Assembly: GCA_963666285.1 (NCBI GenBank)
Contig: OY762711.1
Reading direction: 5' to 3' (one strand)
From: Sedimentisphaerales bacterium
GTDB lineage: Bacteria > Planctomycetota > Phycisphaerae > Sedimentisphaerales > SM23-30
DNA length: 64,000 nt
Part shown: positions 23,635-64,000 of the stretch, piece by piece
Layout: each line of letters opens with the position of its first letter
Position numbering within the stretch: position 1 is the first letter of the stretch
Made by a program: the position numbers and the translations under genes
The notes under the pieces: model-generated
Seen by the model: the letters and a program-made list of their open reading frames with translations, nothing else
Told to the model about the DNA's origin: nothing
Database searches by the model: none

Positions 23635-23708
23635 GGGCCTATAGCTCAGTTGGTTAGAGCATTCGACTCATAATCGAACGGTCCAAGGTTCGAGTCCTTG
23701 TGGGCCCA
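23635..23708 (+). tRNA. tRNA with CAT anticodon, most likely tRNA-Ile2 (lysidine); CCA not encoded
   Basis: Cloverleaf: GGGCCTA/TGGGCCC acceptor, TTCGA-CTCATAA-TCGAA anticodon arm, CAAGG-TTCGAGT-CCTTG T arm; lacks initiator features. Confidence 0.9.
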
Positions 23709-24957
23709 TCAGCTGTAAGTTATTAGAATTGCAAGATTTAGCAACTTTTCGCAAAGTCTCGCAGTTTTCCTGACTTACAGCTTTTTTTATGCGCTCCCCT
23801 GTTTTTTCATTCGAGCCGCTGCAAGCCAATTCTCGCATATTCTGCGCCGCATTTTGCGCCGCTTTTTTATAGTGTTCTTCGGTCACTTGCAGATAGTGTT
23901 TCATGGCAACCTCTGGCGTATTACCTAGCCATGCAGTCACCACCTGTATCGGATAACTTTCTACCAATTCAGTTTCCCTGGTAGCTCTCAGGTTTTGAAA
24001 CACCTTTGGCCACGGGTTTAACCCTGCTTTCTCAATTATCCTGTTAGCTTGTGTACGTAAGTTTGAATTATTCTCATCATATATAGTAATTATTCTGTTT
24101 TCACCATCGGGAGCAAGCTCAAAGGCTTCTCTCAGGAGCGGCAGCAGCTCAGGAAATATCGGCACAATTCGCGTTTCCCGACCTTCAATATGCTCGGTTT
24201 TTGGACTGCGAACAATAAATCGGCTCTTACTCCAATTAACATTATTCCACGTCAAGCCGAATAACTCGGAAGGAATACGCAAACCGCCATATCTGGCAAA
24301 TGCAAATATCAGCCGCCATTGAACATTAGGACAGGCTTCTATAACCTGCTGCATCTCATCACGGCCAATAAATACCATACGGTCGTTTGAGGTGCGGTTT
24401 GCAGTTGCAACATCAGCAAAAGGGTTCTCGGTAATAATACGTTTCTTAATTGCAGCAGCAAAAAACTGCTTTGCTATTTTACTACGTCTATGAACTGTCG
24501 GCATCGCGAGCCCCTACTCGATCAGATACGACCGAAAATTCTGGGCATCAAACGCTGTGAAGTCTTTAACTTGTTTATCGCCCGCAAAGCCTCTAAGATT
24601 ATTAGCGGCACTATTCCAGGTCTTTACAGTTGATTCCTTTACGTCAGTACGACTATCCATATAATCGGTAATCCACTTGCTTACTGTTGGATTTCCTTCG
24701 ATCTCCAGAGGCCGACACAGTTCAACCTTTACCAGCTTATCCCGCAAAACTGGGCTGATCTCATTAAGCCATTCAGCATCTAACCGAGAAGGCTCAACAC
24801 CCTGAATTTTAGCAGACAGTAGGCTTTCGAGCCGTGTTTTGAACGATTCCGCATCACGAACTGAACACTTGCCAATCCTGATCTGTTTGCGGTTGCCGTT
24901 GTGATCAACGAACGCAATACGCTTTTTGCCACCTTGATCTTTAATTAAACTCGCCAT
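23668..24957 (-). pseudogene. tyrosine integrase interrupted by one in-frame TAG (24514-24516)
   Basis: The two ORF-track pieces are in the same frame (…YLIE*GLAMPTV…); catalytic region GGLRIPSE, PKT, QNLR, WLGNT and HY. Confidence 0.88.
23689..23709 (+). repeat. attL core TTCGAGTCCTTGTGGGCCCAT
   Basis: Identical to 37960-37980. Confidence 0.95.
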
Positions 24958-24967
24958 ATTAACGTCC

Positions 24968-25141
24968 TTACTTGATTTCTGAGCGTTGAATAAATTCTCT
25001 GATCGCTGTTTCTGAGATTCTAACCTGGTTACCTGCCTTAAACGCCTTCAGGCTTTTATCTTTGTTTACAAGGTCCCAGACTCGCCTTTCTGACAGCTTC
25101 AACTTGTCAGCAACTTCCTTGTAACTGTAAAACTCATCCAT
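24968..25141 (-). CDS. excisionase-like helix-turn-helix protein, 57 aa (not in the ORF track)
   Basis: Own translation MDEFYSYKEVADKLKLSERRVWDLVNKDKSLKAFKAGNQVRISETAIREFIQRSEIK; AAGGA RBS; directly upstream of int. Confidence 0.8.
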   Translation of the reverse strand: MDEFYSYKEVADKLKLSERRVWDLVNKDKSLKAFKAGNQVRISETAIREFIQRSEIK

Positions 25142-25240
25142 TAATCTTATCCTTTCTGTAATAATATGTCATTACAATTTTGTAGTGAATATAATTTTTT
25201 TGCTTACGCTAAAAATATGAGCCAATAAATCTGACCGCGA

Positions 25241-25459
25241 TTAATAATAGTCAATCAACACAGCATCACTTTCATTTATTATCCCATCCGCCCATTCAAA
25301 TGCAATGTGGCTTGCCGCGTACAGCTCACAAGCATGCATATGCCATTGCTCGTTTAAGCCGCCGTAACAGTTCATATCAATAGCAATATCTATCATGGTA
25401 TCGCTTAATTCTTTTAGCCTTCCGGCTATTTCCTGTTTGCTTGGTGTATTTTGATTCAT
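25241..25459 (-). CDS. hypothetical protein of the element
   Basis: 72-aa ORF with AAGG RBS, co-directional with its neighbours. Confidence 0.55.
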   Translation of the reverse strand: MNQNTPSKQEIAGRLKELSDTMIDIAIDMNCYGGLNEQWHMHACELYAASHIAFEWADGIINESDAVLIDYY

Positions 25460-25564
25460 ATGTTAACCTTATTGGTTTTGTATTGTCTAACCTGGACGAA
25501 CGAACAGTCCGTAAAAAGGCCGGGGTCGATATGCCGCAGGTAAAAGACCTTTAGGAAGGACCCG

Positions 25565-26230
25565 CTACATTGCCTTTTTGAAACATTGCCCAATATTATC
25601 ACATTTTGGATTATCATTTATAGCTTTTAGACAATAATCAAGACCTTTTAGTAGTAGTGCCTGTTGTACGCTTTTGTAGTCATTTATATCAAGCCTGACA
25701 ATTTTTTTGCTTTTCCGATTTTTATTCCATCTATTGATAACTGTCTGAATTTGGTCTGAATATTCGGGTTTTAAGTTGGGACTGTATTCGTAAGAAATAT
25801 TATTTTTTATTTCTTTTATATTTTTTATATTATTAATATTATGGTTGGCTGTTATGTCCCTGTTTTCAGACAAATTGTCCCTAGTTTTGGACAACGTGTC
25901 TCTATCACAAGACAAAGTGTCCCCGATTCCAGATAGTGTATTATTACTTGATGGATGCTTATTAAACAGCAGCATGATCTCATCGCTAGCTACTAACACC
26001 CTGCGGGAATGACTACCGGTATTAACGATATATTTACTGTCTTTAAGCCGCTTAATTACCCGATTAATAGACCTTGTATGAGTATTAAACAATATTGCTA
26101 GTTGCTCATTACTTTGTTTAAGACCTTTTGGCAAGGTGGCTGATAAGACTAATATCTGAAGCTCATATGCCGAAGTAATACCAAGCCGATTAATTGCTAT
26201 CGGAAAACTACAATATTTTAAATCGCTCAT
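25565..26230 (-). CDS. putative replication initiator (N-terminal wHTH, internal iterons)
   Basis: SNEQLAILFNTHTRSINRVIKRL HTH; repeated DTLS units followed by an N/K/I-rich linker, as in phage initiators. Confidence 0.65.
   Translation of the reverse strand: MSDLKYCSFPIAINRLGITSAYELQILVLSATLPKGLKQSNEQLAILFNTHTRSINRVIKRLKDSKYIVNTGSHSRRVLVASDEIMLLFNKHPSSNNTLSGIGDTLSCDRDTLSKTRDNLSENRDITANHNINNIKNIKEIKNNISYEYSPNLKPEYSDQIQTVINRWNKNRKSKKIVRLDINDYKSVQQALLLKGLDYCLKAINDNPKCDNIGQCFKKAM
25855..25938. repeat. four imperfect 21-bp direct repeats (candidate iterons)
   Basis: TGTCCCTGTTTTCAGACAAAT / TGTCCCTAGTTTTGGACAACG / TGTCTCTATCACAAGACAAAG / TGTCCCCGATTCCAGATAGTG, next to an AT-rich tract. Confidence 0.75.
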
Positions 26231-26475
26231 AGATGCTTACCTTTTTTGCCTGCCTGATACGCAATGAAACGCTCAATATTAGGCATATCCAGCTCTATCC
26301 ACTGCATAATCTCTGCCGTTTTCCAAAATCGGCTTTTTCCTATTTTATAACTTGGTGGTATTTTTCCACCTGCCCGCCAATCTCTCCACGTCCTGGGGCT
26401 TACTCCAACAAGTTCTGCTACTTCTTTTTCACGCAATAAAAGCGGCTCTTTTATTGTTTTGTTATCACCTGACAT
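26227..26475 (-). CDS. AlpA/excisionase-like HTH regulator
   Basis: LLREKEVAELVGVSPRTWRDW...GKIPPSYKIGKSRFW. Confidence 0.8.
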   Translation of the reverse strand: MSGDNKTIKEPLLLREKEVAELVGVSPRTWRDWRAGGKIPPSYKIGKSRFWKTAEIMQWIELDMPNIERFIAYQAGKKGKHL

Positions 26476-26477
26476 AC

Positions 26478-26678
26478 TTACCTCCTCACCTGCATATTAA
26501 AGCAGCCTTGTTTAATCTGGATTGCCTGGCTTTTACTAAACAGCCTGATAATACCGATACGCTTTTTCGGCTTAATTCTCAGCTTACGTATTATGTAAGC
26601 TACCCGCTGCGGCGGCTCTTCAATGAAATCTGCAATTTCAGAAAGTGATAGAAGGTTAATTACTGCTAGTTCTGGCAT
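26478..26678 (-). CDS. small winged-helix DNA-binding protein, 66 aa
   Basis: ATG at 26678 with AGGAG RBS; LSLSEIAD...RVAYII...RIGIIRLF resembles MerR/Xis-like domains. Confidence 0.6.
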   Translation of the reverse strand: MPELAVINLLSLSEIADFIEEPPQRVAYIIRKLRIKPKKRIGIIRLFSKSQAIQIKQGCFNMQVRR

Positions 26679-26698
26679 TGGTATTAACTCCTGTAAAA

Positions 26699-27300
26699 TC
26701 ACGCACGCCTCCTGCATAGCAGGAGGTCTGAGGAAGGCCCCTAAAAGGGGCCGTTGGGTTCACTTACTTCAAATTATCTTCATTACGGTCTTTTATTAGT
26801 TGATTCTTGACATAATTCCTTATTACTTCAATGTCAAGTCCAACTGTACTTACATTATAACCTCGAGACCAAAAGCTCCTTCCAAACAAGTTACCTTGAT
26901 GGCGATCAAGTAGCCTGTTTATGCGGATAGCACTTTTGCCCTTCAAAAAACCTATCGCCATTGCAATACTATACTTAGGCGGAACACTTAAAACCATATG
27001 AACATGATCCTTAGCTAAGTTTCCCTCTATTAGTACAATATCCTTTTGACGACATAATTCTCGCAATATCTCTCTAATCTGAGTGCGATTCCTTTTAAAC
27101 CTTTCTATCCTACGATATTTTGGTACCATTACTATATGATACTTACAGTCCCATTTGACATGGGATTGACTTCGCCAGTCTTTCATTTTGGTTCTCCTTT
27201 CGCCCCTTCCAGGGCCTTCCGGAGAACCATTTTATACGCTTACTACGGCAAAGCCTTATAAATTCTCACCGGCAAAGCCGGTGGTTTACGCGGTTACAAT
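26699..27300 (-). mobile_element. IS200/IS605-family element, tnpA only (ends approximate)
   Basis: Subterminal hairpins at 26707-26727, 26736-26752 and 27267-27283; boundaries inferred by comparison with the uninterrupted duplicate at about 27506-27560. Confidence 0.8.
26764..27186 (-). CDS. tnpA: IS200/IS605 Y1 (HUH) transposase
   Basis: YHIVMVPKYR, DHVH, LKGKS, FWSRGY and YVKNQ. Confidence 0.95.
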   Translation of the reverse strand: MKDWRSQSHVKWDCKYHIVMVPKYRRIERFKRNRTQIREILRELCRQKDIVLIEGNLAKDHVHMVLSVPPKYSIAMAIGFLKGKSAIRINRLLDRHQGNLFGRSFWSRGYNVSTVGLDIEVIRNYVKNQLIKDRNEDNLK

Positions 27301-27371
27301 TAAATATAAATCTCAAAACTCAATGTAAAATAGCACGTCGCAATAACCGATTCAATTGCTAATTAAAATCG

Positions 27372-27420
27372 ATTGCTGTATATAGCAATTAATTTTTGAG
27401 ATTGCTATATATAGCAATCT
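27372..27420. promoter_or_regulatory. tandem palindromic operator-like sites
   Basis: ATTGCTGTATATAGCAAT (27372-27389) and the perfect 22-bp palindrome AGATTGCTATATATAGCAATCT (27399-27420). Confidence 0.55.
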
Positions 27421-27920
27421 TTTTACCTCAAACCGTTAGGGCTGACTAATTTTGAACACGTTGTCTAAGCTGATTATTTGTACCGAGCCTGCTTTGGTGT
27501 AAGCATTAACTCCTGTAAAAATAATCACAAATTACAAAGCTAAAAGTAAAATAGCACACGGCAAAACACGATACAATCGCAAAATAAAATACAACAGCAT
27601 ATATAGGGTTATTTTTTTTGAGGCCATACGGTAGGCCCTTTTTGCCACTTAAAACTCGTTATTTTATCTGGATTTTATAACGAGTAATTGTTGGCAAATC
27701 AGATTAGGATACTAATTTTCCACAGCTAGCCTCAAAGTATTGTTAAATAGAGACTTAATATTTATTTGCACGATTCAAGCGTAATTGGTATATTAGTATT
27801 TTTATGCGATTTTTAGGTAAATATGCCTGAAAAATGGGAATAACTTTGGCTAAATTGCTATTATTGCAGCCTGTTCCAGCCAGGTTGTAATTACTTGTTA
27901 TGTAAAGGATTATATAATAC

Positions 27921-30653
27921 ATGGAATTTAAGCTTACATTGGCTCGGTTAGAGAGCCTGTTAATGACCGCTTGTGACGATCTGCGCGGCAGCATGGATGC
28001 AAGCGAATATAAAGAATATATATTCGGTATGCTGTTTCTCAAGCGTGCCAGTGACTTATTTGATCAGCGTCAGGCAGAACTTAGAAAAGAGTTGTCAGAT
28101 CAGGGAATGTCTGATTCTGATATAGCAATAGAACTTGACGACCCGGATAACTATTCCGGCAAATACTTCTATGTACCTGCAAGGGCACGGTGGAATGTTG
28201 GTTGGTCAGAGGAAGTTATTAAAGATGGTGAGACTAAGACTATTGAGCACCCGGCTTTGAAGCATGTAAAAGAAAATGTCGGTACAACTCTGAATAAAGC
28301 TTTAGAAGCTATCGAGGATGCTAACCTTGACGCACTAGAAGACGTTCTAAAAGGTATTAACTTTAACCGCAAGATTGGCCAGCGTACCCTGGACGATGAT
28401 ACATTATCGAATTTTGTCCAAAACTTTGAAAAAATACCTCTAAAAGACGACGACTTTGAATTCCCTGACCTGCTTGGCGCAGCTTATGAATGGCTGATAA
28501 AATACTTTGCTGATTCTGCCGGTAAAAAGGCCGGTGAGTTTTATACACCTACTGAGGTTGTAAGGATATGCGTAGAAATATGTAATCCTCAGGAAGATAT
28601 GAGCGTCTATGACCCTACTGTTGGTTCCGGCGGTATGCTTATCCAGACCCGCGACTATCTGCGTGAAAATGGCAAAAAGGCCGAGGAGGTTGCATTATAC
28701 GGTCAGGAAAAGATTGGTACCACCTGGTCGATCTGTAAGATGAATATGCTGCTGCATGGCATATCACATGCCGATATACGTCAGGAAGATACCATACGAG
28801 AGCCGCAACATTTAGATGAAACCAACGAGCTGAAACGCTATGACCGGGTACTTGCAAATCCTCCATTCAGTCAGAACTATATCAAAAAAGACCTGAAATT
28901 CCCCGGTCGTTTCCCGGTAATGATGCCTGAAAAAGGCAAAAAAGCCGATCTTATGTTTGTACAGCATATGCTCTCTGTTCTCAAGCATAATGGCCGTCTG
29001 GCGACGGTAATGCCGCACGGTGTATTATTTCGCGGTGGTGAAGAAGCAGAAGCTCGTAAATATTTTATTGAGCATGGCTACCTGGAGGCAATTATAGGCC
29101 TGCCGAGTAATTTATTCTATGGTACTGGCATTCCCGCCTGTATCCTGGTTCTGAATAAAGACGGTGCAGCTCAACGCGATCACGTGTTATTTATCAATGC
29201 TGATCGGGAATATCGTGAGGGCAAAGCCCAGAACCACATCAGGCCTGAGGATATTGATAAGATTATCCATGCCTATCGCAGCGGAGAGGATATTCCCGCT
29301 TATGCCCGAAATGTGCCAAAAGCAGAAATAGCTGACGAAGGTTATAACTGCAATATTCGCCGATATGTAGATAATGCACCTCCGCCGGAGCCGCATGATG
29401 TGCGGGCTCATTTGCATGGCGGGGTACCAATTGTTGAGGTTGACAGCCTTGAGCATTTCTGGTCGAACTATGAGGGTTTGCGTGAAGATTGCTTTGTACC
29501 GCGAGATGAGACCTATCTCGATATTGCCCCGGCAATCAGTGAAAAACGCGAAATAGCAGATTTTATCAAAACGCATAAGTCTGTTACAGTCAGACATGAT
29601 CAATTTATGCAGCAGATTGAAACATGGTGGCAGAAGAATCTGCCAATAGTAGAGTCACTTGCTCCAGATGCTGAAAATCAGAGCGAAAGCTCTGGAAATG
29701 TTTATATTATGCGCAGCAGCCTGCTGCGTAGTATTGCCGAGGAACTGTCAGGCCAGAATCTGCTGACTAACTTCCAGGTAAGAGGTGCATTTGCGAATTA
29801 TGTTGATATCTTAAAGGCTGATTTCAAATCTATCGCTGCCAGTGGTTGGGGGCCAGAACTCATCCCGGATGAAGATATATTACAAAGTCAGTTCCCGGAA
29901 GTTCTGGAAGAATTGGAACAGGCACATAGTCGTATAGCAGAGCTTAACGCTCTCTTTGCTGCTGCCGATGAAGAAGACTTTGAAGATACCGAAGATACCG
30001 GGGTATTGCCAGGCTCTGAGGTGAAAGCAAAAAAAGAAGACCTGAAAGCCGCCATAGCCAAATGGAAAGCACACCTCAAAGAAATAAAGGCTCTGGCTGG
30101 CAATATTTATATCGAACTAAAAGCAGCAGGACAATTACCTAAGGATAAGAAAAAGGCATATTATTGCAGTGAGGGTCTGTCTCAGACAGATCCGGAGTTT
30201 GATAACGGCAATCGCATACTCGAATTAGCAGAAACTTCTGGTCTTCAATCTGAATATACTTCTAATATGGCCGATGAGATCCAGCAGGGCAAGGTTGCTT
30301 ATAGCCGGGCTCAGTCTATATTGAACAGCCTTACCAGACACAAAAGGCTGGAAGATGAAGCCAAAGAGCTAAAAGCCAAAATCAGAGCTATCGAAAATAA
30401 ACGCGATGAACTGGTAGAAAGTGCCAGGCTAAAGATATCTGACGATGAGGCCAGAGGTGTTATACTTGAACGGCTGCAAAAGGTACTGATGCGAACCTAT
30501 CAGGCTTATCTGCGAGCTGATGAACGGGCTTGTATAAAAGCAATAGAAAACCTCTGGAATAAATACGCAGTAACAGCTAAAACCATAACAGAACAGCGTA
30601 ATGCAGCTTCTGATAAACTGAATGAGTTTATGAAGGAGCTGGGTTATGAGTGA
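27921..30653 (+). CDS. hsdM: type I R-M methyltransferase subunit (m6A), long form
   Basis: [15 protein letters not shown] (motif I), ANPPF (motif IV) and PHGVLFRGG. Confidence 0.95.
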
Positions 30654-31920
30654 GTGGGTAGAGGCTACAGTAAAGGATGTGACAAAATATCAGAAAGCTG
30701 GAGGTACACCAAATACTAGTGTTAGCTCATATTATGGGGGCAGTATACCTTTTGTAATTATTGAGGATATGTCAAGCTGTTCGAAATATCTAACTTCAAC
30801 GAGAGACACGATAACGCAGTATGGGCTTAAAAATAGTTCTGCCTGGGTTATAACTGAGCCACATGTACTATATTCAATGTACGCTACGGTTGGAAAGCCT
30901 GCAATTAACTGCATATCTTGTGCTACTAATCAAGCCATTATTGCCCTTAAAGAAAATTCATTAATACTACGGGAGTTTTTATATTATCAATTGTTATTTA
31001 TTAGGCCATTTGTATACAAGTATACTTCGCAAACGACTCAATCTAATCTTAATGCTACTATTGTTAGAAATTTACCAATTAAGTACCACAGGGATATTTT
31101 AGTTCAAGATAAAATAGCTACCATTCTCCAAACTATCGATGATGCTATCGAAAAGACCGAGGAGCTTATAGCTAAATACCAGCAGATTAAGGCAGGCATG
31201 ATGCATGATTTGTTTACCAGAGGGCTTACACCAGATGGTAAACTGCGACCAACCAGAGAGCAGGCCCCTGAGCTATATTATGAAACACCTATCGGCTGGA
31301 TACCGAAAGAGTGGGAAGTTAACGCTTTTGGAGCATTGTTTGATATTCAGCTAGGAAAAATGTTAAGTAGAGCTGCTAAAACAGGAAAGTGGAATGCTTT
31401 TTATTTAGCAAATAGAAATATTCAGTGGGATGATATTGACTTTTCCGATTTAGAAGTTATGGATTTTCTTCCTCACGAACGTGAGAAATATAAACTATTT
31501 GAAGGGGATTTACTTGTTTGTGAGGGTGGAGAAGTTGGACGGACTGCGATATGGAGAAATGTAATGGATAATTGCTTCTATCAGAAAGCTATTCATAGAC
31601 TAAGAGCTAAATCAAATATTTCCCCTGAGTACGTATTACGATATATGCAATATGCAAAACTAAATTGTTTGTTTAATAATTATGTGTCACAAACCAGCAT
31701 AGCACATTTAACACGAGAAAAGTTGTCTCAAATTTTAATGCCTGTTCCCCAAACAGATGAACAAGAAAATATTAAAAACTATTTTGACGGCATTGATTCT
31801 AAAATTAAATCAGAAAAACAATTCCTTAATAAGCAGATATTATTAAAACAAGGCTTAATGCATGATCTGTTAACCGGCAAGGTGCCGGTTAGTGTAGATG
31901 AAGAGGTTGATAATGTCTGA
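30646..31920 (+). CDS. hsdS: type I R-M specificity subunit
   Basis: Two variable TRDs with conserved repeats [10 protein letters not shown] and [10 protein letters not shown]; overlaps the hsdM stop. Confidence 0.93.
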
Positions 31921-34900
31921 ATATACAGAAGTTGAGCAGCCGTTTTTAGAGCAGTTGACCGATCTGGGCTGGACATGTATCGATCAGGGGCCAGATATAC
32001 CACAAGACCCTGCGGTGAGCCTGCGGCAAAGCTTCAGGCAGTTGATCCTGCCGGATGTTTTTAGTCAGAGTGTCTCGGCGATTAATACCACCTCAGATGG
32101 CGAGCAGTGGCTAACCGGTCGCCAGTTACAGGATTTACAGGACCAGATCGCCCGCCAGCCTAACCGTACACTGCTGGAAGCAAACGAAGATATACAGAAA
32201 TTGTTATTTAAGGCTCAGGTTGATTTCAACGAGCTAACAGGCGAAGAAGACCCGGTTGTTAAACTTATTGATTTTGCTAACCCTGAAAATAACCAGTTTC
32301 ATGCTATAAATCAGTTTCGTATCGATACGCCCGGCGGGGTTAAAAAGTTTATCATTCCTGATATTGTCTTATTTGTTAACGGCATACCGCTGGTAGTAAT
32401 AGAGTGTAAAAAAGGCGGGCCGGTATGTTCTGACCCTATGTATGAAGCTTATATACAGTTACAGCGATATATGAGCAAACGCAAAGAGGCTCTGGAACAG
32501 GGGTTAAAAGAGGGTGAGCCAAAATTATTTCATACCAATATGCTGCTGGTTCGGACCTGCGGCATAGAAGCTGACTATGGTACGATTACTTCCGGGATAG
32601 AGCATTATTTCCCCTGGAAAACACAATGGCCGGAAAGTGACAAAATTGCAGAAGGTATGACGGCCCAGCAGCAGCTAATCAACGGCATGTTGAATAAGGA
32701 TAATCTACTTCAGATATTGCGAACATCATCGGTATTTATGGATACAGATAGCGGACCGCGTATTAAGGTTGTATGTAGATATCAGCAGTTTAGGGCAGCC
32801 AACAGAATAATTAAGCAGCTTCGGACAGGTCAGAGCTGTATAGAAAGAAGCGGGGTTATCTGGCATACACAAGGTTCAGGTAAAAGCCTGACAATGGTAT
32901 TTGTGGCCAGGATGCTGCGAGCTTCCGGTGATTTGAGTGATTATAAGATTGTTCTGGTCAATGACCGGGTTGACCTGGAGGATCAGCTATCGCAGACTGC
33001 GACTATTATCGGTGGCCGGGTAAATATAATAGAAAACACCCAGCAGCTACGTGAACATTTATCGACCGATAGTTCAGACATAAATATGGTGATGGTGCAT
33101 AAGTTCCAGCAGAGAGATCAGAGCCTGCCGTTATCTGTTGCTCAGGCATTAGGGACATATCAGGCAATCCCTACAGCTCAAACATTTGGTGTTGTTAATA
33201 ATTCGTCCAGGATAATCCTGATGATAGATGAGGCTCATCGTACCCAGGGCTCAGACCTGGGCGATAATGTCTTTGAGGCTTTCCCAAATGCCGCACGTAT
33301 AGCCTTTACCGGTACACCGCTTATAACTGCCCGACATGGCGAGAAAAAGACACATAAGCGTTTTGGTGAATATATTGATACTTACCGTTTAATGGACGCT
33401 GTTAATGATGGTGCCACGTTACAGATTCTTTATGAAGGCCGTACCGCAGATTCAGCCTTGAACGATAAGAGCGGTTTTGAGGCAAAATTTGATAACCTGT
33501 TCAAAGACCGCAGCGAAGAAGAATTATTGGCTATTAAAAAGAAATATGGCGCTACCGGTGATATCCTGGAGGCTCAGCAGCGTATTGATGAAATAGCCAA
33601 AGATATGGTTAATCATTATATCAAGCATATTCTGCCGAATGGTTTCAAAGCTCAAGTTGTATGTCATTCAAAGCTGGCAGCCGTTCGATATCAGCGAGCT
33701 ATAGAAAAAGCCCTGAAAGATAAAATCGAACAGTATAAAGCAGCTACAAAGCCAAACCCGGAACTGATCAAAAAGATCGAGTTTCTAAAGGCTGCTGTTG
33801 TTATCTCTGGCGATGGAACTAATGAAGCAGCTTATGTGACCAAAGCACGCAGGCAGGCTAGGGCGATGAATGCGGTTGATAATTTCTGCAAAAACTTTGA
33901 TATGGATGACCCTGATAAACCATATACTGGTATTGCATTTCTTATTGTATGTGATATGCTGCTTACCGGTTTTGATGCACCTGTTGAGCAGGTAATGTAT
34001 ATTGATAAAAAGATTACCGAGCATACACTACTTCAGGCTATAGCACGAACCAATCGAGTTAAAAAAGGCAAAAAACGCGGGTATGTTGTTGATTATATTG
34101 GGCTGACTGAGCACCTGACCGAAGCATTAACATTATATGCTGCGACCGATGAACTGGATGAATTGGCCGATGGCTTGAAGGGGCTTGAAACAGAAATGCC
34201 TGTTCTGGAAGAGCGATATCAGCGGTTATTGCAGCTGTTTTCAGAGCATAAGGTTAAAAACGTTGAGGAATTTGTTCAGGGTAAATTACCAGATATACAT
34301 GCTGAAGCTGAGGTTGTTCACGAAGCGGTTAAATTGCTGAAAGATGAGAGAATTCGAGCAGATTTTGGTGTATATTTGAAGACTTTTCTAACCAGCCTGG
34401 ATATAATACTACCGCACCCTGTTGCTTTTCCTTATAGAGTGCCAGCACGCAGATTCGGTTATATTCTGCGAGTGGCCAAAGAGCGTTATAAAGACAGCAC
34501 TCTGAACCTGGGCGATGCCGGTCAGAAGGTGAAAGACCTAATTAACGAGCATCTGATCAGCCTTGGCATAGACCCGAAAGTGCCGCCGGTTGAGTTGCTG
34601 GCCGATGATTTTATCGAAAAGCTTAACGGGCATTCAGGCGGTAATGCTGAGGCCAGGGCCAGTGAAATGGAACATGCGATACGTAAACATTGTACTGTTC
34701 ATCATGACGAGGACCCGGCATTTTACCAAAGGCTCTCTGAGAAGGTTGACGGCCTTATTGAGCAGCATAAAGATGAATGGATAAGGCTTGCTGACGAGCT
34801 TGAGAAGCTGCGTACAGAGGTCATTAAGGGCCGTGTAGTCGGTAATGATGGCATGAGTAAAGAAGCCAGTACTTTTTACGACCATATTGCTAACGAAGCA

Positions 34901-35179
34901 TTTGAAGACGGTAAAGTGCCTGCTGCTGATAAACAAAAGATGAAAATTCTAATGGGAGCGATTGTTGAGACCCTACAGGACAGTATTGGCAGTATTGACT
35001 ACTGGAACAATGCCGATAAGCAAAAACGTACCCGCAGCACAATTAAAAAAGCCCTGACACTGACGGGTATCGAGCAGCTAAAAGAAAATCGTGAGCGTGT
35101 TGCGGTTGAGATTATGAAGTTAGCTAAAAACAGACATGATGATTTGATCAAAGGATTACAAGATCAAGATAATGAATAA
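31913..35179 (+). CDS. hsdR: type I R-M restriction subunit
   Basis: PDIVLFVNGIPLVVIECK nuclease motif, WHTQGSGKS, DEAH, FTGTP and QAIARTNR. Confidence 0.95.
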   Translation: MSEYTEVEQPFLEQLTDLGWTCIDQGPDIPQDPAVSLRQSFRQLILPDVFSQSVSAINTTSDGEQWLTGRQLQDLQDQIARQPNRTLLEANEDIQKLLFKAQVDFNELTGEEDPVVKLIDFANPENNQFHAINQFRIDTPGGVKKFIIPDIVLFVNGIPLVVIECKKGGPVCSDPMYEAYIQLQRYMSKRKEALEQGLKEGEPKLFHTNMLLVRTCGIEADYGTITSGIEHYFPWKTQWPESDKIAEGMTAQQQLINGMLNKDNLLQILRTSSVFMDTDSGPRIKVVCRYQQFRAANRIIKQLRTGQSCIERSGVIWHTQGSGKSLTMVFVARMLRASGDLSDYKIVLVNDRVDLEDQLSQTATIIGGRVNIIENTQQLREHLSTDSSDINMVMVHKFQQRDQSLPLSVAQALGTYQAIPTAQTFGVVNNSSRIILMIDEAHRTQGSDLGDNVFEAFPNAARIAFTGTPLITARHGEKKTHKRFGEYIDTYRLMDAVNDGATLQILYEGRTADSALNDKSGFEAKFDNLFKDRSEEELLAIKKKYGATGDILEAQQRIDEIAKDMVNHYIKHILPNGFKAQVVCHSKLAAVRYQRAIEKALKDKIEQYKAATKPNPELIKKIEFLKAAVVISGDGTNEAAYVTKARRQARAMNAVDNFCKNFDMDDPDKPYTGIAFLIVCDMLLTGFDAPVEQVMYIDKKITEHTLLQAIARTNRVKKGKKRGYVVDYIGLTEHLTEALTLYAATDELDELADGLKGLETEMPVLEERYQRLLQLFSEHKVKNVEEFVQGKLPDIHAEAEVVHEAVKLLKDERIRADFGVYLKTFLTSLDIILPHPVAFPYRVPARRFGYILRVAKERYKDSTLNLGDAGQKVKDLINEHLISLGIDPKVPPVELLADDFIEKLNGHSGGNAEARASEMEHAIRKHCTVHHDEDPAFYQRLSEKVDGLIEQHKDEWIRLADELEKLRTEVIKGRVVGNDGMSKEASTFYDHIANEAFEDGKVPAADKQKMKILMGAIVETLQDSIGSIDYWNNADKQKRTRSTIKKALTLTGIEQLKENRERVAVEIMKLAKNRHDDLIKGLQDQDNE

Positions 35180-35879
35180 ACGAAGAATAAGAGATATAGA
35201 TTATCAGCTATTGCCAGGTAGTGAGCGTAAAACAACCGATATTGTTATTGAGCGTAATGGTGAAGTTGTGGTACGTCCACCGCAAGGGTTTTCTGCCAGG
35301 GAAATAGATGCAGTTGTTGAAAGTAAGCGTATCTGGATATATCGTAATCTGGCTCAATGGCGAGATTTGAACGCAACTTCAGTCGTTCGTGAATGGGTTA
35401 ACGGTGAGTCCTTTTTATATTTGGGCCGGGCATATCGCTTGTCACTGGTAGCTGGCCAGGAATGCGATCTAAAGCTTAAAGAGGGTAGGTTTTGCCTTAA
35501 ACGCAGTTTGATAGATGATGGCGGACCAAAAGCAGCAAAAAAGGCTTTTGTTGATTTTTATTGCGAGAAGGGGCTATTGCGTATCAAAGACCGTGTTAAC
35601 TACTTTGCACCAAAAGTTGGAGTAAAGCCAAACCAGGTTAGCGTTAAAGAAATCGGCTACCGCTGGGCTAGTTGCAGTAAAATAAACAATCTATCCTTTA
35701 ACTGGAAGTGTATGATGGCACCGCTGACAGTTATCGATTATGTTGTTGTTCACGAACTATGCCATATTCATCACCGTGACCATTCTGACACATTTTGGAA
35801 TGAGGTAGATAAGATTATCCCTGATTATCGACTTCGAAAGACCTGGCTCAAAGAGCACGGTGCAGGACTTGATTTGTAG
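35172..35879 (+). CDS. M48/SprT-like zinc metalloprotease (YgjP/DUF45 type)
   Basis: RWASCS, DYVVVHELCH and HSDTFW; overlaps the hsdR stop. Confidence 0.9.
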   Translation: MNKRRIRDIDYQLLPGSERKTTDIVIERNGEVVVRPPQGFSAREIDAVVESKRIWIYRNLAQWRDLNATSVVREWVNGESFLYLGRAYRLSLVAGQECDLKLKEGRFCLKRSLIDDGGPKAAKKAFVDFYCEKGLLRIKDRVNYFAPKVGVKPNQVSVKEIGYRWASCSKINNLSFNWKCMMAPLTVIDYVVVHELCHIHHRDHSDTFWNEVDKIIPDYRLRKTWLKEHGAGLDL

Positions 35880-35926
35880 CTGGGTATAAAATCAGGCATA
35901 GGTTATGAAAATAATAGGAGTAACTG

Positions 35927-36717
35927 ATGAAAAGAATCAAAAATCAGAATAATAAAAGATTTGTTGCTCATTTTGATATTCTTGGTTTCAAATATCTGAC
36001 AAAAAATAAATTCGATGAAGCCTGGGGAGCATTATCTGACTATAGAGCTGTAATGGATAAATTAACTAATGATACTATTGTACTAGATACAGAGACTAAA
36101 GAGAGTCTTCATAAACGTATCAAATTGTTTTTATTTTCAGATTCGATACTAATATTTTCTTTAGGTTGTGAAGCTAGTGACTTAAAGGCCATGCTGGTTG
36201 TAGCAACCGAATTGTTTAAACAATCAATGGAGACCTGCGTTCCTTTAAGGGGTGGAATTGCTTTAGGGGATTTTGCTTTTAACTATAAAACAGCTCATAT
36301 TCTTGATAACAAAGACCCGGATTATGGGAAAATGATATATGAGCTCGGTATGTGCTGTGGCCCAGCTTTTGTAAAAGCTTATGAGATCGGAGAATATGCT
36401 CAGTGGATGGGGATAGTCGTTTGCAATGCGGTAAAAGAGTTAATAAAAACAATGAATCTTTGACTGCCGGAATTAATAGCGTGGATTGTTTGATTGATTG
36501 GGATGTTTACGAGCATGACGAAAAGATTACAACTAGAAGCGTTGTTAACTGGCCAGCGATATATTTTAGTGATACAAAAGTTAAATTGCCTATATCTGTT
36601 GAAAGTTTTTACCAGCCTTTTGAAAAAATGTTCGGGGCTTTCGAAACCTTGCGAGAAAAAGACAAGCAAAAATATATAAACACTGTTGATTTTTTTAATA
36701 AATTAGCTGGCAAATGA
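35927..36717 (+). pseudogene. class-III nucleotidyl cyclase-like protein split by a 1-nt frameshift near 36445-36449
   Basis: FDILGFK, FSDS, PLRGGIALG and GPAFVKAYE motifs; one extra A in the A5 run joins ORF 35927-36463 to the frame of ORF 36403-36717. Confidence 0.65.
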
Positions 36718-36737
36718 TTTTGTGACTGGAGGTTTTA

Positions 36738-37721
36738 ATGCAAAAACTTGGACGATTAACTAAAATTGACGATTTACGGGACATTTGGCAGAATGAAGCA
36801 GGCGATTTTACGCCCTGGCTTGCTGCTGAAGAGAATATTACCTTATTGGGAGATACCATAGGACTGGAGCTTGAAGTTGAGGGCCAGGAGCAGAATGTAG
36901 GGCCTTTCAGGGCAGATATATTATGTAAAGATACGGCAAATAATAACTGGGTACTAATCGAAAACCAATTGGAGCGGACAGATCATAACCATCTGGGGCA
37001 ACTTCTTACTTATGCCGCAGGATTGGAAGCAGTAACTATCGTCTGGGTGGCGCAGCGTTTTACAGATGAACATCGTGCGGCACTAGACTGGCTTAACGAA
37101 AAGACCGATGACGATGTTAATTTCTTCGGGCTGGAAATCGAACTCTGGAAAATCGGCGACTCTGATATAGCACCGAAGTTTAATATAATATCTAAACCGA
37201 ATGATTGGAGCCGAACAATAAAAACAACAGTGGAAAAAGCTGAAATTTCAGAAACAAAGAAAATGCAGCATAATTACTGGTCCACTTTTAGGAATTTTGT
37301 TGAAGAATCCGGAAGTTTTATTAAATGCCAGAAGCCGCTTCCTCAGCATTGGACAAATATCTCAATCGGTCGGTCCAATTTTTATCTTGTTGTTAGAATG
37401 AATACTCGAGACAAACAAATAGGTATATATCTTAATGTTGCTGGTCCAGAAAAGAAGTCCTATTATAAGATATTGGAAAATAAGTACAAAAATCATATAG
37501 AACAGCAAATTGGTATGCCAATCGACTGGCGTGAGTTACCTGATGCAAAAGAAAGCCATCTGGAAATATATTTTGAAGCTGACCCCGGAGATCAAAATGA
37601 TTGGATAAGGCAGCATCAATGGCTGAAAGATAACCTCGAATTATTCCACAGGGTATTGCAGCCGATAATAAAGAATCTTGATCTGGCAGAGCTGGATGAG
37701 ATAGAAAAAGCTTCGGAATAG
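36738..37721 (+). CDS. PD-(D/E)XK nuclease-like N-terminal domain plus DUF4268-like C-terminal domain
   Basis: EAGDFTPWL, ADIL, IENQL..TDH.HLGQLLTYAAG; C-terminal YW..F...PQHW. Confidence 0.75.
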   Translation: MQKLGRLTKIDDLRDIWQNEAGDFTPWLAAEENITLLGDTIGLELEVEGQEQNVGPFRADILCKDTANNNWVLIENQLERTDHNHLGQLLTYAAGLEAVTIVWVAQRFTDEHRAALDWLNEKTDDDVNFFGLEIELWKIGDSDIAPKFNIISKPNDWSRTIKTTVEKAEISETKKMQHNYWSTFRNFVEESGSFIKCQKPLPQHWTNISIGRSNFYLVVRMNTRDKQIGIYLNVAGPEKKSYYKILENKYKNHIEQQIGMPIDWRELPDAKESHLEIYFEADPGDQNDWIRQHQWLKDNLELFHRVLQPIIKNLDLAELDEIEKASE

Positions 37722-37773
37722 CTATATTATGTTAAATCATAAGTACTTGATAGCAGGCTATGTTAAAATCTGT

Positions 37774-37980
37774 TCACTTAGCATTTTCTATTAACATTGA
37801 CCGTATCGAAGCTAGAACAGTTTCCCGCTTCTCAGGGGTGAGTTCAGGCCAGATCGATATAATTTCTGCTAATATAGCGCATTGCACGCCGTATTCTACG
37901 CCGCCCCCTACCACACCCTTTTCATAAATACTGTCATATCCATTACTTATAAAATCTCTTTCGAGTCCTTGTGGGCCCAT
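37774..37980 (-). CDS. displaced C-terminal segment of the integrase reading frame (MGPQGLE plus 61 aa)
   Basis: Open frame passes through attR in the same phase as int passes through attL; ends in the amphipathic IISIWPELTPEKRETVLASIR segment. Confidence 0.6.
   Translation of the reverse strand: MGPQGLERDFISNGYDSIYEKGVVGGGVEYGVQCAILAEIISIWPELTPEKRETVLASIRSMLIENAK
37960..37980 (+). repeat. attR core (duplicated tRNA 3' end)
   Basis: Identical to 23689-23709. Confidence 0.95.
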
Positions 37981-38255
37981 TTTACTTAACTCCTGTATAG
38001 ATACGAATTTAGAAGAATCTAACGGTAAAGTATCGAAAATACAGGAGTTAGCAAAGGTATCTAATATTTGCGAATCGGTATAATTACCATTATTTTCCAA
38101 GTCTTCGTCTATATGTCGGTACTGGATTCAGTACTGTTTGCTCAACTCTCTGTTACCTGTAAAAAATGCTCCATTGCTATAGCTGGAGAATTGCCAATAA
38201 TCTCACATACTATAGCAATTGAAGAAAATATATATCGTTAGTCGATACATATTAT

Positions 38256-38990
38256 ATGAAATCTTACCCAATAGAATTACGCCAACTTGTGCTTGATGCA
38301 GTAGACAGTAATCAAGGCACTCAACAGGAAATAGCAGAACGTTTTAGTGTTTCAGCAATTTGGATCAGAAAGTTGTTATATAAAAGAAAGGGTTCCGATT
38401 CAATAGAATCAGCCAAACAGGCTGGTCGTATGTTGCGTAAGACGACAGCTAAAATAGACATCGGCAAGGCAGAATGCAAATACTCTGTAAGTGACGGTGC
38501 GGTTTGGATAGAGAAACAATATAAAGGCAAGTTGCCTATGCTGGATGATAACATACTGGATGTATTTCATTTTAAGGACCATCTTACTAATGCGTCTCAT
38601 TCGCTATATGGGGAGAATAGTAAAGAGTCAGTTCATTGGCGTGACAAGATGAAAACGGTAGCATTAGAAAATGGTTCTCTGGTTTTACTTGATCGTTTGA
38701 AAGAATGCTACAATAATCTTGATGATACCGACAGTCGCAGTGAGATAGATAGCCTGAGGAATTATATATCCAAACGAGTAGCTATGACAGATTATCCGAA
38801 GTTTATCGATAAAGGGTATGATATTGGCTCTGGACCCACGGAATCGTTTTGCGGATGCCTCACAAAGAGGCTGAAAGGGCCAGGCATGAGATGGGATTCC
38901 GACAATGCAGAAGCTGTAATGGCTTTAGGCAGCATATATTACAGCAACTTATGGGATACATACTGGAAAATGCAAAGAAAATCAACTTAA
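38256..38990 (+). pseudogene. chimeric transposase remnant (IS630-like HTH fused to an ISKra4-like C-terminus)
   Basis: YPIELR...QQEIAERFSVS N-terminus; DGAVWI, LDVFH and IGSGPTES...RLKGPGMRW C-terminus; N-terminal part of the DDE domain missing. Confidence 0.7.
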
Positions 38991-39108
38991 AACATGCCAG
39001 AAATAAATGTCACACACCAGTAATATTTGAACAATAAATTTTATTTGACTTAAATTTTAATTATATTTATACTGTCAAGTCTATTAATTTTGAGTACAAG
39101 TATTATTT

Positions 39109-39182
39109 GCGTCAGTAGCTCAGCTGGATAGAGCACCGGATTTCTAATCCGGCGGTCACAGGTTCGAATCCTGTCTGACGTG
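39109..39182 (+). tRNA. tRNA-Arg(TCT)
   Basis: GCGTCAG/CTGACGT acceptor, CCGGA-TTTCTAA-TCCGG anticodon arm, ACAGG-TTCGAAT-CCTGT T arm. Confidence 0.95.
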
Positions 39183-39189
39183 GTAGGTT

Positions 39190-39227
39190 AAAGCCTTGTA
39201 ACTTACTTAAGTTACAAGGCTTTACTT
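39190..39227 (+). terminator. terminator hairpin after tRNA-Arg
   Basis: AAAGCCTTGTAACTTA-CT-TAAGTTACAAGGCTTT inverted repeat followed by ACTT. Confidence 0.75.
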
Positions 39228-60830: not shown

Positions 60831-63800
60831 TCAAATCACATCCAGGAAAAACCATGCTTGACTCTGGCCAGTTTCTATTAAAGAATTGGCCAGGGTTTCA
60901 AGATTTTTAATTGAAGAATTCAATGGATCCGCTACCTTAACCTTTTGAGGATTCCAATTTCCACTGACCGCACCAATAAGTAACCTGTCATCACCAACGA
61001 TCGAAACACTGCCAAGCGATGCTTTTTTGATATTGCCGGCAGCAATAATCGAATTTAATGTTGATATACTGTTGGCATCAACTGCCTTTCCGGTAACCAG
61101 AATACTGCGAATTTCGGCATTATCATCGAGATATATCTCTGGTACGCTATCAAGCAGATTATCTGTTGACTCTACCCCGGCCAAAAGTTCAACCCCGTCT
61201 ATTCCACCGCATTTGATACTTTTAATATTGCCGCCGGAATATATGCTGCCGTCCCTTAGCCAGCCGGCAGTTTTTATAGAGCCTATTTCATTTGAATAAA
61301 AATAAATATCTCTTATATCATCTACTGCTTTCACTGTATTGATTAAACCAGCCGAATATATATCAAGCTCACTTATCGACTGGGCTTTTATCGACTTCAC
61401 ATTATCAACATTTGCAATTTTCAGATTATCAATTTCGTTTTTTGCCAAAACAGTTCCAATATCACAGTTGAGATTCCAGGTTCCATCTGAGATACTTGTT
61501 TTTGCCTTGACTGATTTCACTGGAATACTGCCATTAACGGTAATCATGCCCTTGATATAACTATTAGAACTAATAGTGCCAAGCGTATCTGCTACTAATT
61601 CAGCATCAGACTCCATAGCATTAACTTTTATTGAGCTGATACCACTTGAAAGCATTATTGTGTTAGTAAATCCATCATTATCACCAAAAACATTTAGCTG
61701 TACTTTTGCCGGTATATCACCAGAACCGGTTAAAATAATATCAGCGTCATTAACAATATATCCAATATCCAGGCTCGCAACTGAACCGACGCCATAAATA
61801 CCGACACCATCAACTACCAGTCCCGAAGCTTTCAAACTGGCTAAATTTGCCTGTATATCCATTTGCTGGATACTGGTATTAGCCTCTTTAGCTGTAATAA
61901 TTTGAACATAACTCACTCCAGGAAGAACAACCATCTTTCCAATATCGACGTTTGTATCCTCAGAGAAATATAATTTAGCTATCCCTGAATCCACTTTTAC
62001 TGTCACCTTGTTGTTATTACTGTCAGTAAAGATATAAGGATTATCCGGGGAAACTTCAACTTCTTTTTCATATGCAACCTGTACATATGCAGTCAAAGTA
62101 ATTTTATCTCCCTGCATATCCAATAATGTATATTCAAAGCTATCCAGACCGGTATATCCGGAATCAGAGATATAATGCAAAGAACCATTCTCTAAGGCTG
62201 CTATCCCATGAGCCGGCTGCTGATAAGATAGCAAGGAAACATAAACACTGTTAACATCACCAACAATCTGTCGAATTCCGGTATCAGTTTTAACCGCAGG
62301 AATACTTTCAACCGGATTATCTTGTGAAGGCGGTACGATCAAAGTCAAGCTCGCAGCAGATGGACTGGAAATAGAATCACTCACTGCATACGGAATATAG
62401 CATTTATTCTCAGAGATAATAATATTATCACCATTACGTGCAGCAAATATAATATCCATACCGCCATCATTATTCAGGTCGGCAGCAAAAACACAATATG
62501 CCCCGTTTGCCTGATCTGTTATTATTTTTTCCGAGCTGAAATCTCCATTGCCGTCATTTTCATACCATGCGATCTTATCATCATTATATGAGGCTGAAAC
62601 TACATCTATATCACCGTCATTATCATAATCTGCGGCATAAACACTTCTGGCACCATCAGCCTGGTATGTTATCGTTCTTGCTATGTTAAAGGTTCCAGTT
62701 CCATTATTTTCATACCAGGCGATTTTATCATCAGCACTTGAAGCGGACAATACATCCATATCACCGTCATTGTCAAGATCTGCGGCATAAACACTCCTGG
62801 CTCCGTCAGCCTGGTATGTTATCACCTGGACATTAAAACTGCCAGTTCCATCATTTTCATACCAGGTAATCTTATCATCGTTAAATGATGCAGACAAGAC
62901 ATCCATATCACCATCATTGTCAAGATCTGCTGAATAAACACAGTAAGCTCCGTCAGCCTGGTCTGTTATGATATTCTGTGCAGTGAAACTCCCTTTTCCG
63001 GTATTCTCATACCAGGCAATTTTATTGTCATCATATGAAGCTGCCAAAACGTCCATATCACCATCATTGTCAAGATCAGCAGCATAAACACTGGATGCAG
63101 CGTATGCCTGGTCTGTAATAATAATTTGTATACTGAAATTCCCATCACCATCATTTTCATACCAGGCAATTTTATCATCAATATATGAAGCTGACAAGAC
63201 ATCAATATCTCCATCATTATCAAGGTCAGCGGCATAAACACTCCTGGCCCCATCTGCCAGATAAGAAATTACCTTTTGAGTAGAAAAACTGCCATTACCA
63301 TTATTTTCATACCAGGCAATCATATCATCATTATAAGAAACTGACAATAAATCCATATCTCCATCATTATCGAGGTCTGCGGCATATACGCTAACAGGTT
63401 CGTCCACCTGGTTAGTCAGTTCAAAAGATGAAAATTGATCTTCTAAGCTTAATGTTACAATATCTACCCCAAATGAATTATTGTCAGAAATATATCTAAA
63501 TGAACCATCTGAAAAAACTTCAAGTCTGCCAAGATTTGTATTATATTGGCCCGCTCCAATAATTGACAAAGGTGAATTTTCCGGATCATAATCATTAGCC
63601 AGTAAACCATCACTACCGGAAACATTCAAAGTGCTATTGTCCGAAACAATATAAATATCAGGAACGGTAACCGGAGACTGGTTTTCTTCTGTTACCGATA
63701 TATACACAACAGCAGAATCAGTATTAGATAGAACATTATCTGTTATCGTATAAGTAAATGAATCAAGACCAACATAGCCATAATCCGGGGCATAAACAAA

Positions 63801-64000
63801 TGAACCATCTGAATATAATTCCACCTGGCCGTGGGATGATGCAAATGTCCCGGGATTGGATACCGCAAAAGCATCACCATCAATATCAGAATCGTTAACC
63901 AGCAAACCATGCTCTACCGTAGCATTTAATTTGCTCCCTCGTTCTACCTGGTAATAATCATCTTCTGCCGCAGGGGCAGTATTTTTAGTTGTTATATATA
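60831..64000 (-). CDS. large extracellular protein with cadherin/Ig-like domains and a 7-bladed FG-GAP/VCBS propeller (5' end outside the window)
   Basis: Frame stays open to the window edge; LLAND.D...DGSF.Y...G.DSFTY domains; seven ADLDNDGD.D...AWYEN-type repeats, the last degenerate. Confidence 0.88.
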   Translation of the reverse strand, partial: YITTKNTAPAAEDDYYQVERGSKLNATVEHGLLVNDSDIDGDAFAVSNPGTFASSHGQVELYSDGSFVYAPDYGYVGLDSFTYTITDNVLSNTDSAVVYISVTEENQSPVTVPDIYIVSDNSTLNVSGSDGLLANDYDPENSPLSIIGAGQYNTNLGRLEVFSDGSFRYISDNNSFGVDIVTLSLEDQFSSFELTNQVDEPVSVYAADLDNDGDMDLLSVSYNDDMIAWYENNGNGSFSTQKVISYLADGARSVYAADLDNDGDIDVLSASYIDDKIAWYENDGDGNFSIQIIITDQAYAASSVYAADLDNDGDMDVLAASYDDNKIAWYENTGKGSFTAQNIITDQADGAYCVYSADLDNDGDMDVLSASFNDDKITWYENDGTGSFNVQVITYQADGARSVYAADLDNDGDMDVLSASSADDKIAWYENNGTGTFNIARTITYQADGARSVYAADYDNDGDIDVVSASYNDDKIAWYENDGNGDFSSEKIITDQANGAYCVFAADLNNDGGMDIIFAARNGDNIIISENKCYIPYAVSDSISSPSAASLTLIVPPSQDNPVESIPAVKTDTGIRQIVGDVNSVYVSLLSYQQPAHGIAALENGSLHYISDSGYTGLDSFEYTLLDMQGDKITLTAYVQVAYEKEVEVSPDNPYIFTDSNNNKVTVKVDSGIAKLYFSEDTNVDIGKMVVLPGVSYVQIITAKEANTSIQQMDIQANLASLKASGLVVDGVGIYGVGSVASLDIGYIVNDADIILTGSGDIPAKVQLNVFGDNDGFTNTIMLSSGISSIKVNAMESDAELVADTLGTISSNSYIKGMITVNGSIPVKSVKAKTSISDGTWNLNCDIGTVLAKNEIDNLKIANVDNVKSIKAQSISELDIYSAGLINTVKAVDDIRDIYFYSNEIGSIKTAGWLRDGSIYSGGNIKSIKCGGIDGVELLAGVESTDNLLDSVPEIYLDDNAEIRSILVTGKAVDANSISTLNSIIAAGNIKKASLGSVSIVGDDRLLIGAVSGNWNPQKVKVADPLNSSIKNLETLANSLIETGQSQAWFFLDVI
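62410..63395 (-). repeat. seven intragenic tandem repeats of about 150 nt (FG-GAP blades)
   Basis: Recurring TTTTCATACCAGGC and CCATCATTGTCAAGATC-like words at 147-150 nt spacing. Confidence 0.85.

Follow-up and report, generated by a model that had tools for sequence, protein, structure and literature searches.

A tyrosine integrase gene that crosses its own attachment site and exchanges a conserved C-terminal module on integration in Planctomycetota

Introduction

The closest described counterpart of the element considered here is the Myxococcus phage Mx8, in which the phage attachment site (attP) lies within the integrase gene, so that integration gives the gene a new 3' end and alters the activity of the product without abolishing it (accessible portions of PMC6070905, PMC4383910 and PMC11610982). 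The 'suicidal' integrases of the archaeal elements SSV1, pTN3 and pT26-2 also carry the attachment (att) site inside the integrase gene and target a tRNA (PMC8371274 and PMC5861418, in part), and the accessible sections of a 2021 review describe self-disrupting recombinases as exclusively archaeal, with no mention of Mx8 (PMC8371274). In mycobacteriophage BPs it is the repressor gene that contains attP, and integration strips a C-terminal segment from the protein (PMC3694055, in part). Here we describe a 14.3-kb restriction-modification (defence) island inserted at the 3' end of a tRNA gene in a Sedimentisphaerales bacterium of the phylum Planctomycetota (assembly GCA_963666285.1), the integrase gene of which runs across attP. 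The island lies in a 64,000-nt stretch of contig OY762711.1, referred to below as the window.

An original prediction, made from the letters of the window alone, had named SSV1 and BPs as precedents. Both do share an att site inside a gene, but the closest precedent, Mx8, had been missed. The SSV1-type gene is split into int(N) and a catalytic int(C), whereas the planctomycete gene is divided behind the catalytic tyrosine and keeps its N-terminal 423 codons intact; similarly, BPs loses a degradation tag from a repressor, whereas the island exchanges a folded hairpin with a variable end on an integrase. In Mx8 IntP, and likewise in Mx9, attP lies inside the tyrosine-integrase gene and integration supplies a new 3' end whilst the enzyme stays active; the island likewise has its attP core inside int, behind the catalytic tyrosine, and acquires a new short C-terminus on integration into a tRNA gene. 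Moreover, the parts of Mx8 Int (AF396866, 533 aa) follow one another as they do here: first a catalytic region, then a linker and a GLEP segment that resembles tRNA antisense (about 416-424), and finally some 110 further residues. Its body is only remotely related to the planctomycete integrases and its tail is unrelated to theirs, as a profile of the planctomycete tail scores 4.4 bits on Mx8 Int and gives no match in the last 110 residues. Judged by sequence, the design is the same as that of Mx8 Int but the sequence family is different. Whilst Mx8 represents one phage group, the planctomycete design is phylum-wide, with many tRNA and transfer-messenger RNA (tmRNA) targets, three reading frames and two integrase families. 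No description of this integrase and tail family was found in the literature searched, which mostly did not include subscription papers. The main texts of a tyrosine-recombinase classification (PMC8138268, by term search) and of Integrase-On-Demand (PMC12884075) do not mention Planctomycetes, although the supplements of either may list members.

Organisation of the island and its integrase gene

The island is bounded by a perfect 21-bp direct repeat, which forms the left (attL) and right (attR) attachment cores at 23689-23709 and 37960-37980 and occurs in just these two copies when the whole 6.35-Mb genome is searched. The core is the 3' end, comprising the T-arm and acceptor end, of a plus-strand tRNA gene with a CAT anticodon (23635-23708), which is taken to be of Ile2 type; the initiator and elongator methionine tRNAs are located elsewhere. 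The repeats enclose 14,271 bp that hold the integrase gene, an HTH_17/AlpA-like gene, an IS200 copy and a type I restriction-modification cluster. Neither the attP joint of a circle nor the joint of an empty bacterial attachment site (attB) is present in the contigs of four public runs from one study, and as contigs drop rare forms this gives no evidence on excision.

The integrase gene lies on the minus strand (24957-23668) and has 429 codons in its integrated form. The protein matches PF00589 and a SAM-like domain and has the catalytic residues R227, K253 and Y355, with the catalytic histidine positions substituted (QNLR and WLGN). The gene passes in frame through the attL core, which is read as MGPQGLE (codons 417-423), and ends with PWTVRL*, these last six residues and the stop (23668-23688) being read antisense from the tRNA. 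At the other end of the island the minus-strand frame 37980-37774 is open over 68 codons including the core, and the part beyond the core is a parked integrase tail of 61 codons and a stop (37774-37959, minus strand), which contains a predicted helical hairpin (37878-37780) and an invariant tryptophan (37851-37849). When attP is joined in silico, int runs through the core into this tail to give 484 codons, and an excision circle would thus supply the 61-residue tail in place of the six tRNA-antisense residues. The circle encodes the integrase followed by a disordered linker, the att core and a two-helix hairpin that is conserved; on integration six residues take the place of the last 61, and the hairpin is parked at attR. 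As the core lies behind Tyr355, the catalytic domain is kept whole and only the tail is exchanged. In all these respects the original prediction, which had placed the att repeat in frame within the gene and foreseen both ends of the protein, is borne out. One reading frame crosses attP, and integration removes a selected module whilst keeping the catalytic domain.

The copy of int in the window carries a premature TAG at 24514-24516 (codon 148), a position at which homologues mostly have glutamine or lysine. The codon is TAG, with no other letter, in the contigs of two runs of one sample, which is the probable source. Read-through by recoding was considered and rejected, as there is no tRNA with a CUA anticodon among 56 ARAGORN calls. 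Owing to the nonsense codon this integrase copy is probably dead, and the island probably immobile unless complemented. A second sample (run X3) contains a 1,516-nt contig of high depth that matches, without differences, only the part of int at 23666-24440.

The DNA to the right of attR holds what is left of an older integrase gene of this family, a decayed 3' end (37981-38220, minus strand), which appears to derive from an earlier tandem island. Its segment 38220-38134 matches the C-terminal catalytic region of the family (profile E 3e-9), its frame being broken by stops and a frameshift, and the distance from its WxGN-equivalent codon to the core is 233 nt, compared with 234 nt in the island's own int and a family range of 213-300. 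Because this remnant sits at the family spacing from the core, an older relative, since decayed, was most likely already in place when the island entered ahead of it. A fragment of an ISKra4-like transposase (38256-38990, plus strand) borders the remnant. An AGGAG upstream of the core, noticed in the original prediction, is indeed present, but the flank that carries it is this remnant rather than plain chromosome, and the motif falls within an 11-bp inverted repeat.

The integrase and tail families

A search with the 68-residue tail as a single sequence matched only itself, and profiles were required. A four-sequence profile retrieves 1,063 protein clusters at E<=0.001; one of its seeds came from genome G283, which is included in no phase count, and an 82-sequence profile made without that seed finds the tail in 127 of 401 genomes of the phylum. 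Leu37 and Trp44 are invariant in the family. The tail has no family in Pfam, PHROG or NCBIfam, neither GenBank phages nor PLSDB plasmids contain a match, and the Atlas features gave no usable named cluster for it. The integrase family comprises 5,556 proteins that match at E<=1e-20. Among the best 120 of these, the window's own included, a pattern match finds the tRNA-antisense motif at the C-terminal end in 118, in the frames GLEP (104), RTRT (12) and DSNP (2). The names of homologues and the Atlas taxa point to a planctomycete host, probably of the Phycisphaerae.

Several other occurrences of the two families were observed. P0124 and P0128 are lipoprotein-like proteins with four tandem hairpin copies each and no integrase. 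Another member of the integrase family, truncated at its 5' end (G000:C1:2642128-2642694), runs into tRNA-Glu(CTC) some 37 kb upstream, and no attR was found for it. An orphan hairpin tail at G000:C1:1656502-1656800 stands behind a copy of about 50 nt of tRNA-Ser(TGA), the full tRNA gene being 1.9 Mb away, and has no partner attL within 57 kb.

Phase between integrase and parked tail

One locus proves little, because a third of random frames would be in phase, and it is the test across the family that decides. For 150 of 253 tail hits an integrase hit was sought on the contig and strand of the tail; of the resulting 36 pairs, a T-arm anchor is present in 33 and the core scores at least 22 in 31. 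Among these listed tail hits, tail and integrase are in phase in all 31 mapped islands (binomial 2e-15), which fall into the three frame classes as 26/1/4 (permutation p 5e-6). The frame is open from the core to the tryptophan in 30 of the 31, over 14 different spacings, and attP lies some 60-90 codons behind the catalytic tyrosine. The residues behind the T-arm anchor have a median number of 9 in the integrated form compared with 69 in the circle (n = 31). Two pairs with weaker cores are also in phase, as were L074 and L084 in an earlier pairing; no phase could be assigned to G429, and L085 was excluded from the set since there the integrase is immediately followed by the tail.

A replicate was provided by 41 further tail loci, 18 of which have a matching attL within the DNA covered, 16 of these with an integrase of a second, distant family; between the two families identity is about 22% for the body and 44-58% for the tail. 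All 16 are in phase, with classes of 6/4/6 read by eye (permutation 6e-7), in a set that includes one locus with a stop before the core and one weak match. Kinship alone does not explain the phase, because the integrase trees need at least 6 (31 integrases) and at least 7 (14 integrases) changes of frame class. The original prediction had likened the W-P-x-L helix pair to small 'hypothetical' open reading frames (ORFs) near planctomycete tRNAs, as possible stored tails. Such tails do stand at attR, in phase with their own integrases in 31/31 and 16/16 cases, which is far from random, and over a thousand clusters of 'hypothetical' ORFs (the 1,063 above) can be explained as parked integrase ends.

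The joined form also occurs in nature. Seven full-length integrases (P0253, P0271, P0278, P0281, P0283, P0287 and P0288) have the core and hairpin in one frame, and in IMG/VR eight of 28 loci are fused in frame (five distinct sequences, covering all three frames), with none of the 28 having a hairpin out of frame. The fused IMG/VR loci could each represent a free circle or a tandem junction. Three IMG/VR loci continue into a whole tRNA, all without a hairpin.

Two variants of the arrangement were seen. A subgroup (L126, L128, L132, L137 and L149) has a different, shorter in-frame tail that ends in one hydrophobic helix. At L069, L071, L073 and L063 the 50-120 bp before attR almost repeat the 3' end of the int of the island itself, which suggests tandem re-insertion or a crossover outside the core.

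Coding selection and embedded repeats

Over 59 hairpins the identity at the three codon positions is 0.48/0.62/0.33, so that third positions are the most variable, and the invariant leucine is encoded by five different codons. The other frames of the same DNA contain stops in 11 to 43 of the 59. The ratio of nonsynonymous to synonymous substitution (dN/dS) is about 0.22 over nine disjoint close pairs of 66 nt each, a value that is partly circular as the pairs were profile-selected. By these sequence criteria the tail is a real coding module under purifying selection.

Ahead of the hairpin, a GGAESGA-like motif corresponds to a DNA direct repeat that is also found in the int linker of the same element. 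The two sets of repeats co-vary element by element, with a mean score of 34 versus 20 for the repeats of other elements (0 of 20,000 permutations, n = 33), and the match is weak in this window (score 21). The window has a direct-repeat cluster inside the int linker (23834-23862, minus strand) and a degenerate one inside the tail (37877-37904, minus strand), which are candidate first and second arm-type sites. Both are located within the coding stretch, and the repeats may represent arm-type sites embedded in coding sequence.

Structure of the integrase and the hairpin

In the AlphaFold model of the tail the chain is disordered to residue 34 and then forms two confident helices; over the models made, the predicted local distance difference test score (pLDDT) is about 90-96 in the hairpin and below 50 in the linker. 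About ten hairpin positions are almost always hydrophobic; conservation lies in the two helices and the last residues of the tail are not conserved. The model of the fused homologue P0271 consists of an arm-binding-like domain, predicted as three strands and a helix, followed by core-binding and catalytic domains, 85 low-confidence residues and then the hairpin. Its fold matches the lambda and Tn1549 integrases (Foldseek E 4e-11 and 9e-10), which share the N-terminal three-strand-plus-helix domain but are not known to carry such a tail. The lambda and Tn1549 integrase genes adjoin the att site and are not known to cross it.

The nearest likenesses of the hairpin itself are to the C-terminal dimerising hairpins of helix-turn-helix (HTH) regulators, namely helices 6-7 of C.Csp231I and TP901-1 CI, and are marginal in all scores. 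The dimerisation domain of TP901-1 CI aligns with a VIA Z of 3.5 and a root-mean-square deviation of 1.4 over 34 residues, and among the structural neighbours in the Atlas are portions of XRE proteins that lie outside the HTH. In C.Csp231I the matched helices interleave and supply 75% of the dimer interface (PMC3115060, in part). The hairpin of the island differs from those of the HTH regulators in being joined to the integrase by a long disordered tether and in being present only in the circular state.

Proposed role of the module and alternative explanations

It is proposed that a lambda-type (arm-binding) tyrosine integrase, encoded across attP, inserts the island at the tRNA's 3' end. The hairpin would self-associate as an interleaved four-helix bundle and so tether integrase protomers. 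The long form, of which the circle or phage is the only source, would assemble the attP complex and capture the bare tRNA attB efficiently, whereas the short form, the product of the integrated copy, would be poor at attB capture and would excise only with the island's Xis-like protein, for which the 82-residue HTH_17/AlpA-like protein (26227-26475, minus strand) is the candidate excisionase or directionality factor. The state of the DNA would thereby set the form of the enzyme, as in Mx8. To the interpretation that the module dimerises, with the result that the enzyme from the circle is the better integrase and that the short form depends on the Xis-like protein and serves excision, we assign a probability of roughly 0.55. 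A circle-specific function is indicated because the module is selected though absent from integrated copies and is shared by two distant families. A tail that tunes oligomerisation had been among the original suggestions, and the C.Csp231I match and the fold comparisons make it the best lead to the role of the tail. More tentatively, planctomycete phages and islands may have in common a dimerisation domain that is portable and gated by recombination. This hairpin would be akin to the helices through which HTH regulators dimerise and would have come to stand behind attP in two or more distant families of tyrosine integrase, such that the crossover would switch both oligomeric state and direction and the junctions of tandem arrays would hand the tail of one element to the integrase of its neighbour.

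A number of observations weigh against a dimerising module that is exchanged throughout the family. C.Csp231I 68-97 is the sole PDB sequence match of the tail profile under E 0.1, at a marginal E of 0.013, and fold searches with the hairpin returned no Foldseek match at E<=0.001 and a best VIA Z of 3.9; this lack of significant fold matches does not imply that the hairpin fold is new or different. The integrase-tail junction of L085 is out of frame, as are those of older remnants upstream of the tails in L075 and L083, and several relatives on viral contigs stop before any att-like sequence. Moreover, a protein profile was used to choose the tails, and such a choice is biased towards sequences that are free of stops and resemble protein. 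Among 40 integrases without a listed tail partner, a set depleted of tails by construction, attR was located within <=20 kb for 13 and not for 21, with 6 unanchored; at the 13 sites the hairpin is in frame in 2, a different in-frame ORF of 46-55 residues is present in 6 and <=20 residues follow in 5, at 2 of which the integrase itself stops before the core. The hairpin module is common and not obligatory, and relatives may do without it.

The tail could instead be a real but non-regulatory structural addition that contributes solubility, stability or weak dimerisation, with the gene spanning attP only through the overlap of arm sites and linker and with both forms catalysing alike. The position of the arm-like repeats in the coding linker and tail fits such an explanation, as do the 5 of 13 attR sites without a long tail and the integrases P0095 and L041, which carry a fused hairpin with no recognisable att core ahead of it. 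It is nevertheless doubtful, as it does not account for purifying selection on a module that is missing from every integrated copy, nor for a tail that is 44-58% shared by families so distant in the body.

It is improbable that the tail acts as a brake, which would inhibit, destabilise or redirect the integrase in the circle, or bind the Xis-like protein or a host factor, and might for instance stop re-excision or favour lytic or plasmid growth. Rep and Int of BPs do bear C-terminal degradation tags (PMC3694055, in part), and the large conserved hydrophobic face of the hairpin could bind a partner, but a terminal degron would be expected to have a conserved end, whereas here the conservation is in the two helices.

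Translation of the tail alone from attR, with an action in trans, for example by capping incoming long integrases in a dominant-negative manner, is very improbable. The original prediction had raised stand-alone translation on account of the AGGAG at this locus; an in-frame ATG, GTG or TTG is present at the core in 20 of 33 islands and gene callers predict many such ORFs. However, the start codon is a by-product of the antisense tRNA 3' end and is absent in the other 13, a Shine-Dalgarno-like 4-mer precedes it in only 3 of the 20, and the upstream DNA is whatever flanks attB, in this case the decayed integrase.

That the phase is due to chance and the 'tail' is conserved DNA, such as protein-binding sites, misread as protein is hardly credible, for although the co-varying DNA repeats explain the GGAESGA-like part, the phase holds in 47/47 cases over three frames, the codon usage of the leucine, the variable third positions and the stops in other frames are those of a protein, and natural fused proteins exist.

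Other features of the island and window

Between int and the IS200 copy the minus strand encodes, in addition to the HTH_17/AlpA-like protein, a 72-aa ORF with no Pfam family (25241-25459), a 221-aa ORF with a weak N-terminal HTH match (25565-26230) and a 79-aa ORF with no Pfam family (26478-26717), the 5' end of which overlaps the IS200-like element. This element (26697-27318, minus strand; transposase 26764-27186) has near-identical copies elsewhere in the genome. The cargo lies on the plus strand and consists of the type I restriction-modification genes hsdM, hsdS and hsdR together with a gene for a YgjP-like metallopeptidase (27921-35879), followed by a 178-aa ORF without a family and a DUF4268 protein (35927-37721).

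The window DNA behind the target tRNA shows no similarity in the congeners G273 and G297 or in the family members G008 and G103. Further to the right, a tRNA-Arg(TCT) with its 5' flank (39018-39199) is a 93% copy of G000:C1:2548295-2548475, and a 1,024-aa ORF (60831-63905) holds five diverged repeats with 150-nt spacing (62420-63466). Nine extra tRNA genes are clustered at G000:C1:5226832-5229866.

Significance

The exchange of an integrase tail by integration has hitherto been treated as a curiosity of Mx8, and is here widespread in a large group of bacterial integrases, where what is exchanged is a defined, selected module of 30 residues. In Planctomycetota the parked hairpin can serve to mark attR sites. 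Where an integrase is cloned from an integrated copy, as is the case for genome-mined ones, the truncated form would be obtained.

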